Shown piece by piece: positions 818-1,292 of a DNA stretch of 1,292 bases. The stretch comes from Escherichia coli. GTDB lineage: Bacteria; Pseudomonadota; Gammaproteobacteria; Enterobacterales; Enterobacteriaceae. The translations under genes were made by a program, and so were the position numbers. The DNA lies in the NCBI RefSeq assembly GCF_003334355.1, contig NZ_QOWP01000090.1, one strand, 5' to 3'. The notes under the pieces were generated by a model. It saw nothing but the letters and a program-made list of their open reading frames with translations. It had not been told where the DNA came from and did no database searches. The first letter of the stretch is position 1. The number at the start of each line of letters is the position of its first letter.

Positions 818-1292
818 AAACGGGGGCCGAAGCCATCCGGGCGCTGGCCACGCAGCTTCCGTCGTTTCGCCAGAAACTGAATGAGGGCTGGTATCAGGTG
901 CGCATTGCCGGGCGTGATGCAGGCGAAAATGAATTATCAGCCCGTCTTAATGAACCGCTGGCAAATGGTGCTGTGATCCATATCGTGCCGCGTCTGGCAG
1001 GAGCCAAAAGTGGCGGTGTGTTTCAGGCTGTGCTGGGGGCGGCTGTTATGGCGGTTGCTATATGGATGCCGGGGGTAGGAATTATGGCGAGTAATCTGCT
1101 GTTTTCTCTCGGTGCCAGTATGACGCTTGGCGGTGTTGCACAGATGCTGGCCCCTAAACCCAAAACCCCCCGCACACAGACAACGGATAACGGCAAACAG
1201 AACACCTATTTTTCTTCACTGGATAACATGGTTGCCCAGGGCAATGTTCTGCCTGTTCTGTACGGGGAAATGCGCGTGGGGTCACGCGTGGT
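715..1292 (+). CDS. I: Phage tail tip assembly protein I (ubiquitin-like domain protein), 5' partial: the start is present and the 3' end lies beyond the window
   Basis: Frame-1 ORF from ATG 715 with no stop through 1292; it is absent from the ORF track because it has no in-window stop. The translation is MAATHTLPLASPGMARICLYGDLQRFGRRIDLRVKTGAEAIRALATQLPSFRQKLNEGWYQVRIAGRD...HIVPRLAGAKSGGVFQAVLGAA...LAPKPKTPRTQTTDNGKQNTYFSSLDNMVAQGNVLPVLYGEMRVGSRV. The N- and C-terminal stretches match what I recall of lambda gpI, and the gene sits where I is expected (overlapping the end of K, upstream of J). Confidence 0.92.
   Translation, partial: MAATHTLPLASPGMARICLYGDLQRFGRRIDLRVKTGAEAIRALATQLPSFRQKLNEGWYQVRIAGRDAGENELSARLNEPLANGAVIHIVPRLAGAKSGGVFQAVLGAAVMAVAIWMPGVGIMASNLLFSLGASMTLGGVAQMLAPKPKTPRTQTTDNGKQNTYFSSLDNMVAQGNVLPVLYGEMRVGSRV

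Follow-up and report, generated by a model that had tools for sequence, protein, structure and literature searches.

Ordinary coding DNA as the probable nature of a C-rich tract and its C6 run in the tail-tip gene I of a lambdoid Escherichia coli prophage

The C-rich tract studied here, together with the C6 homopolymer inside it, is very probably ordinary coding DNA of a lambdoid tail-tip gene I, in which the run by itself has no function and is a generic site of homopolymer error or decay. The window, by which we mean the whole analysed stretch of 1,292 nucleotides, carries the tract at 1151..1171 on the plus strand (CCCCTAAACCCAAAACCCCCC; 13 C, 7 A and 1 T), and direct reading confirmed the position and content, with C6 inside, that an earlier note on this DNA had given. 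The tract would encode a short polar segment, rich in Pro and Lys/Arg, at the point where gpI passes from helix H2 into the lumen-sealing plug, and C6 would arise solely from the spelling ACC-CCC-CGC that this allele uses for a conserved Thr-Pro-Arg. The run would now and then gain or lose a base, either by true mutation in decaying prophages or by long-read consensus error, and such a change would destroy the C-terminal, virion-incorporated part of gpI. The analysis established directly which gene this is, how its residues map, how the codons vary, that length variants are rare and that a control run varies at an equal rate. The feature belongs to the already known biology of lambda gpI, and its biological weight is small, since the tract encodes a regular segment of a phage protein whose structure has been characterised.

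Gene I and the tail-tip genes around it

The window contains two tail-tip genes, K and I, which belong to a lambdoid prophage of E. coli. Gene I (tail tip assembly or plug protein) was assigned by translation, homology and annotation; its first 192 codons lie at 715..1292 on the plus strand, starting from the ATG at 715-717 in frame 1, and the open reading frame continues past the window end. Alignment to lambda gpI (PDB 8IYK chain I) places the final ~21 residues of the product outside the window. With phmmer, residues 1-192 aligned to residues 1-202 of that chain (E = 1.5e-94), and the similarity runs from end to end, with the C-terminal plug and beta-strands also covered. Pfam family PF06805 (Lambda_tail_I) matched residues 14-97 over model positions 2-83 of 83 (E = 1.7e-23), which gives I the N-terminal ubiquitin-like domain of the lambda gpI family, while NCBIfam returned no family for I. 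The hydropathy profile showed the hydrophobic helices and, after them, the polar plug segment that also characterise this family. The position in the tail cluster agreed as well: K and I overlap within the window, relatives have the order L-K-I-J with J lying beyond the window, and they annotate the same gene as tail tip assembly protein I. Matches of the window to K-I tail tip genes were found in 374 phage records and in 4,936 of 5,426 complete E. coli genomes, the top match (99.3% identity over window 77-1292) being labelled 'C40 family peptidase' and 'tail assembly protein'.

The start of gene I is called in three ways among relatives, namely at ATG 715 (lambda/UniProt and mEp332), at ATG 754 (PGAP in strain 2018-02-2CC) and at GTG 814 (PGAP in 19A14, VR50 and 118UI, and also PhiR49_1). 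The GTG 814 start would remove one third of the Lambda_tail_I domain, which spans residues 14-97 when counted from 715.

Upstream of I, gene K (MPN plus NlpC/P60, 'C40 family peptidase') occupies 78..817 on the plus strand, without its ATG and with its stop at 815-817, as judged from annotation, weak NCBIfam matches to NlpC/P60 and desampylase (MPN), and junction analysis. It is read in frame 2 and overlaps I by 103 nt in a lambda-like arrangement. Window 1-77 is IS sequence and not phage: here an IS3-family element (IS629/IS1203-like, plus strand) contributes its 3' end, in which the transposase stop lies at 33-35 and the right terminal repeat, ...CCCGGGGCGGTTCA (ending ...GGTTCA), reaches to 77. 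The element interrupts the first codons of K, following ATGA. E. coli 118UI (NZ_CP032515) shares this junction. There the gene order is L-IS-K-I-J and a 3-bp CAC target duplication can be read; PGAP begins K in this strain at an ATA within the IS end. The K start is lost in the window, and the first canonical start in the K frame is GTG 143. Since K lacks its ATG, tail assembly in this prophage is probably defective, and the state of gene I would therefore matter even less here.

The E. coli prophage nearest to the window, NZ_AP021896 (1-1963), is 99.3% identical over K-I and has a tape-measure pseudogene with an internal stop. Many such K-I copies lie in decaying prophages.

The tract at the end of the hydrophobic region

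Across the tract, the frame of gene I reads GCC CCT AAA CCC AAA ACC CCC CGC ACA, encoding A146 P147 K148 P149 K150 T151 P152 R153 T154 (APKPKTPRT; 1150..1176, plus strand). The C6 homopolymer (1166..1171, plus strand, direct reading), flanked by A1165 on the left and G1172 on the right, spans three codons, taking CC from Thr151 (ACC), all three bases from Pro152 (CCC) and the leading C from Arg153 (CGC). The A/C-only composition of the tract, its single T apart, is a consequence of the encoded amino acids, with Pro as CCN, Lys as AAA and Thr as ACC. Neither the run nor the tract is statistically unusual. In 5000 mononucleotide shuffles of the whole window, a C run of at least 6 arose in 21.6%, some homopolymer of at least 6 in 75.7% and a 21-mer with at least 13 C in 15.5%, which keeps both C6 and the C-rich 21-mer within chance expectation.

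The architecture of lambda gpI is known from cryo-EM. Helices H1 and H2 are followed by a plug at residues 159-175, ordered in the closed state, where it seals the tail tip, and then by beta-strands; three gpI copies are needed per virion (PMC11101478). Ge et al. found gpI ordered from residue 101 in the closed tail and only from residue 167 in the LamB-bound open tail, and proposed that H1 and H2 enter the outer membrane (PMC11101478). Xiao et al. 2023 modelled residues 135-223, in which 137-152 form the hydrophobic stretch GILFSLGASMVLGGVA (PMC10721106), and residues 134-222 were resolved in the Ur-lambda study, bound to a C-terminal fragment of gpH (PMC12617516). In these structures, the gpI trimer sits inside the tail-tip lumen and blocks the exit of gpH and DNA (PMC11101478, PMC10721106, PMC12617516).

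By the phmmer alignment to 8IYK chain I and the boundaries given in PMC11101478, codons A146-T154 correspond to lambda gpI 156-164 (APKARTPRI), at the junction of H2 and the plug. The preceding Gly/Ala-rich hydrophobic region, residues ~101-145 (1015..1149, plus strand), corresponds to H1 and H2 according to hydropathy, alignment gaps and PMC11101478, and homology would place the equivalent of the plug domain (lambda 159-175) at residues 149-165 (1159..1209, plus strand). In 15-residue Kyte-Doolittle windows, the profile stood at about +2.0 near residues 108-118 and at about +1.0 to +1.5 up to ~138, kept within +1 to +2 over residues ~105-140, fell to -1.9 at residue 153 and lay between -1.9 and -2.2 over 150-160. 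Read against the lambda cryo-EM models, the tract would therefore be the end of H2 together with the first plug residues, acting as a helix-breaking, positively charged hinge at the hydrophobic-to-polar transition; this role is taken from lambda, and the hydrophobic region of the present allele is 10 residues shorter than lambda's. Homology likewise suggests that the I protein of the window would form the same lumen-blocking trimer.

The H1/H2 region is the part of I most divergent from lambda, with a shorter length and two alignment gaps, and its N- and C-terminal flanks are nearly identical to lambda. It seems to behave like a mosaic or variable cassette inside an otherwise conserved gene.

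Set beside lambda gpI (PDB 8IYK, 8IYL, 8K35, 8XCG, 9E7M), the protein shares, besides the gene order of its relatives and near-identity apart from the hydrophobic region, the tract context ...GGVAQMLAPK--TPR-QTTDNGKQNTYFSSLDNMVAQGNVLPVLYGEMRVGSRV, in which Thr-Pro-Arg is kept. It differs in having P149 K150 and T154 where lambda has A159 R160 and I164, and the lambda codons ACT-CCC-CGT give C4 in place of C6. A further likeness, drawn by description, is to the plug of the T5 baseplate hub protein pb3, where a tripod of three plugs shuts the tube at the site of the gpI tripod and the hydrophobic part may touch the outer membrane (PMC10721106); the T5 plug is an insertion in one large protein, whereas that of lambda is a separate gene product.

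Codon usage under the conserved tripeptide was followed in relatives from IMG/VR, comprising 80 distinct loci with protein identity of 86-98%. Thr-Pro-Arg was kept in 67 of the 80, with the peptide MLAPK[P/A][K/R/Q]TPRTQTT in 64 loci and MLAPRPKTPRTQTT in 3 more; 13 loci carried one of three diverged peptides, without Thr-Pro-Arg and without a C run. At the DNA level, ACCCCCCG (ACC-CCC-CGN, C6) was present in 22/80 loci, ACTCCCCG or ACACCCCG (ACT/ACA-CCC-CGN, the C4 of the lambda type) in 38/80 and ACTCCACGT (ACT-CCA-CGT) in 7/80. Because other alleles spell the same Thr-Pro-Arg with shorter C runs, C6 is just one of the synonymous ways in which a conserved tripeptide is written, and the homopolymer itself is not under selection.

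The earlier note had supposed that the tract is probably just a linker. As an informal name, 'linker' is fair for a Pro/Lys-rich polar segment directly after a hydrophobic region, but the segment is not merely floppy: it aligns with a part of lambda gpI that is ordered in the closed tip, and its Thr-Pro-Arg is conserved to the extent given above.

Length variation at C6 and at a control run

A change in the length of C6 had been predicted in the earlier note to truncate I upstream of its conserved C-terminal region, and a shift of one base in either direction does remove that part. With one C added (C7), a stop follows 6 codons downstream. With one C removed (C5), the frame enters an unrelated tail that is free of stops to the window end and amounts to 57 codons in full-length relatives. 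The run could on this ground be a true, contingency-like mutational hotspot that toggles gene I, and with it tail production, in prophage populations. We consider this very unlikely on the counts that follow.

Length alleles were counted in the 5,426 complete E. coli genomes as exact matches of 80-82-base queries carrying C5, C6 or C7, a single indel bringing the identity below 99%. C6 was found in 513 records, C5 in one (19A14, GCF_038396545.1) and C7 in one (VR50, GCF_000968515.1), and PGAP calls both variants 'frameshifted' pseudogenes. In the phage collection, the C6 allele was found in four records and C5 in one (mEp332). These three database sequences are what speaks for a hotspot and against the reading of the run as ordinary coding DNA, as they show that the site is less than fully stable; in mEp332, an isolated phage, C5 would require explanation if it were real. 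However, C6 varies no more than a control homopolymer, the G6 run of K (363..368, plus strand, codons CGG GGG GCG, direct reading), for which the complete E. coli genomes gave 764 G6, 3 G5 and 0 G7 in the same 66-base context. The variant rate is 0.39% at both runs (2/515 at C6 vs 3/767 at the K G6).

The IMG/VR relatives gave the same picture. A gapped pattern scan that accepted C4 to C8 between exact flanks found C6 in 18 of 18 same-flank contigs, and length variants were present in 0 of the 80 distinct loci. The earlier note, which had named the run as a possible variation hotspot, had proposed to compare tract length among homologues and had held that an invariant length would speak against the idea; the length proved nearly invariant, and the idea essentially falls. 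Phase-variable tracts are marked by length and by frequent length polymorphism in close relatives. Such polymorphism was not seen among the relatives examined, and the run has 6 bases, shorter than known G/C contingency tracts, which typically have 8 or more. Most alleles, moreover, make the same peptide from C4 or shorter and have no C6 to toggle. Gene I is also inactivated by other routes: two IMG/VR loci (L068 and L070) carry an amber codon (CAG -> TAG) at the Gln of ...DNMVAQGNVL..., the 31st codon from the ATG that matches window 1144 and 22 codons past the tract Pro, which is an independent route to I inactivation in prophages.

The C5 and C7 alleles of the run thus seen as ordinary coding DNA are single-base changes called 'frameshifted', just as long-read homopolymer errors and the frameshift decay of cryptic prophages are, and no difference from that class was found. 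We infer that they are consensus errors or decay. The records of mEp332 and PhiR49_1 resemble the same class in having further single-base indels that break essential genes. In mEp332, the CDS of 'tail tip assembly protein I' (XSB41054.1) leaves the frame past ...PKPKTP, that is, after residue 152, which makes the deposited protein unfit as a gpI reference. Over 6.8 kb (H to J), mEp332 has only two internal single-base deletions relative to PhiR49_1 and a prophage, both of them frameshifting: one falls in the C run of I, and the other falls in K, at window 163 (GGAGGGAGAAAG -> GGAGGG-GAAAG), outside any long homopolymer. Across an 18.4-kb structural region, terminase A and tape measure H are in turn disrupted by single-base deletions in the sister record, PhiR49_1, where H is annotated as two CDSs and Lom is likewise split. 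Both phages are listed with laboratory hosts, and growth is difficult to square with defective terminase, tape-measure, K and I genes; the C5 of mEp332 and the other indels of both records are therefore probably consensus or assembly errors, a reading that we favour and do not regard as proven.

The two records come from the same submission, with indel sites at 33492 (K) and 34495 (I) in mEp332 (PV340541) and at 19830 and 28284 in PhiR49_1 (PV340568), mostly at or beside G or C runs. A Genome Research 2025 paper on lambdoid phages was considered as the origin of the mEp332 sequence and is not its source.

For annotation, the C6 of I is, like the G6 of K, a spot at which frameshifted-gene artefacts or variants occasionally appear in lambdoid prophage assemblies. 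A call of 'frameshifted tail assembly protein' at C6 should be verified in the reads before prophage decay is inferred from it.

Recoding, antisense reading and nucleic acid structure

The earlier note had also named the run as a potential slippage site for polymerase or ribosome. Programmed ribosomal or transcriptional slippage here would give a second form of gpI or rescue C5 alleles such as that of mEp332, and we judge it extremely improbable. A tRNA-Pro could re-pair on CCC after a one-base shift in the C run, just three gpI copies are required per virion (PMC11101478), and a cultured phage, mEp332, was deposited with C5. The second frameshift of mEp332 in K and the broken terminase and tape measure of PhiR49_1, on the other hand, suggest assembly error. 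The sequence around the run gave the idea no functional support. By eye, the zero frame AAA CCC AAA ACC CCC CGC contains no in-phase X XXY YYZ heptamer of the -1 slippery type. The 90 nt downstream (window 1172-1261) showed no stimulatory fold, with an MFE of -19.7 kcal/mol and z = -0.59, and 52 of 200 shuffles folded as well or better. The run is not conserved either, C6 being the allele of only 22 in 80 relatives.

The alternative frames were no more informative. The -1 frame meets a stop within 0-6 codons in every relative (80 IMG/VR loci). The +1 frame runs for 57 codons without a stop in 74 of the 80, which could be taken as a sign of use, but the proteins are 86-98% identical and their shared open frame is not independent evidence; the +1 peptide is unrelated to gpI and resembles nothing, and these relatives offer no defined, conserved trans-frame product. 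The programmed -1 frameshift of lambda G/GT (slippery G GGA AAG, tail chaperone genes) is a precedent for recoding in a lambdoid tail cluster, from which the tract differs: it lacks an in-phase heptamer, its run is not conserved and its second frame yields no meaningful product. A more modest proposal, that the run tolerates a change in its length because a low level of -1 slippage by tRNA-Pro at CCC-C brings back the frame, and that a true-C5 phage like mEp332 would still make three gpI, strikes us as equally hard to credit; if true, it would reveal a cryptic recoding site within a classic tail gene.

An action of the tract through the minus strand or through DNA or RNA structure (G-quadruplex, antisense ORF or small RNA) is barely conceivable and has been largely refuted, for although the complement GGGGGGTTTTGGGTTTAGGGG is G-rich and two short antisense ORFs overlap the tract (1023-1205, 60 aa; 1154-1285, 43 aa), a regex search of both window strands found no canonical four-tract G3+ quadruplex, an Rfam scan (E up to 1) gave nothing at the tract and a sole hit elsewhere (E = 0.93, far under the gathering score), a motif scan found no promoter or terminator at the tract, the tract with its flanks folds no better than shuffles (z = +0.49), and the evidence for the sense frame as gene I is strong.
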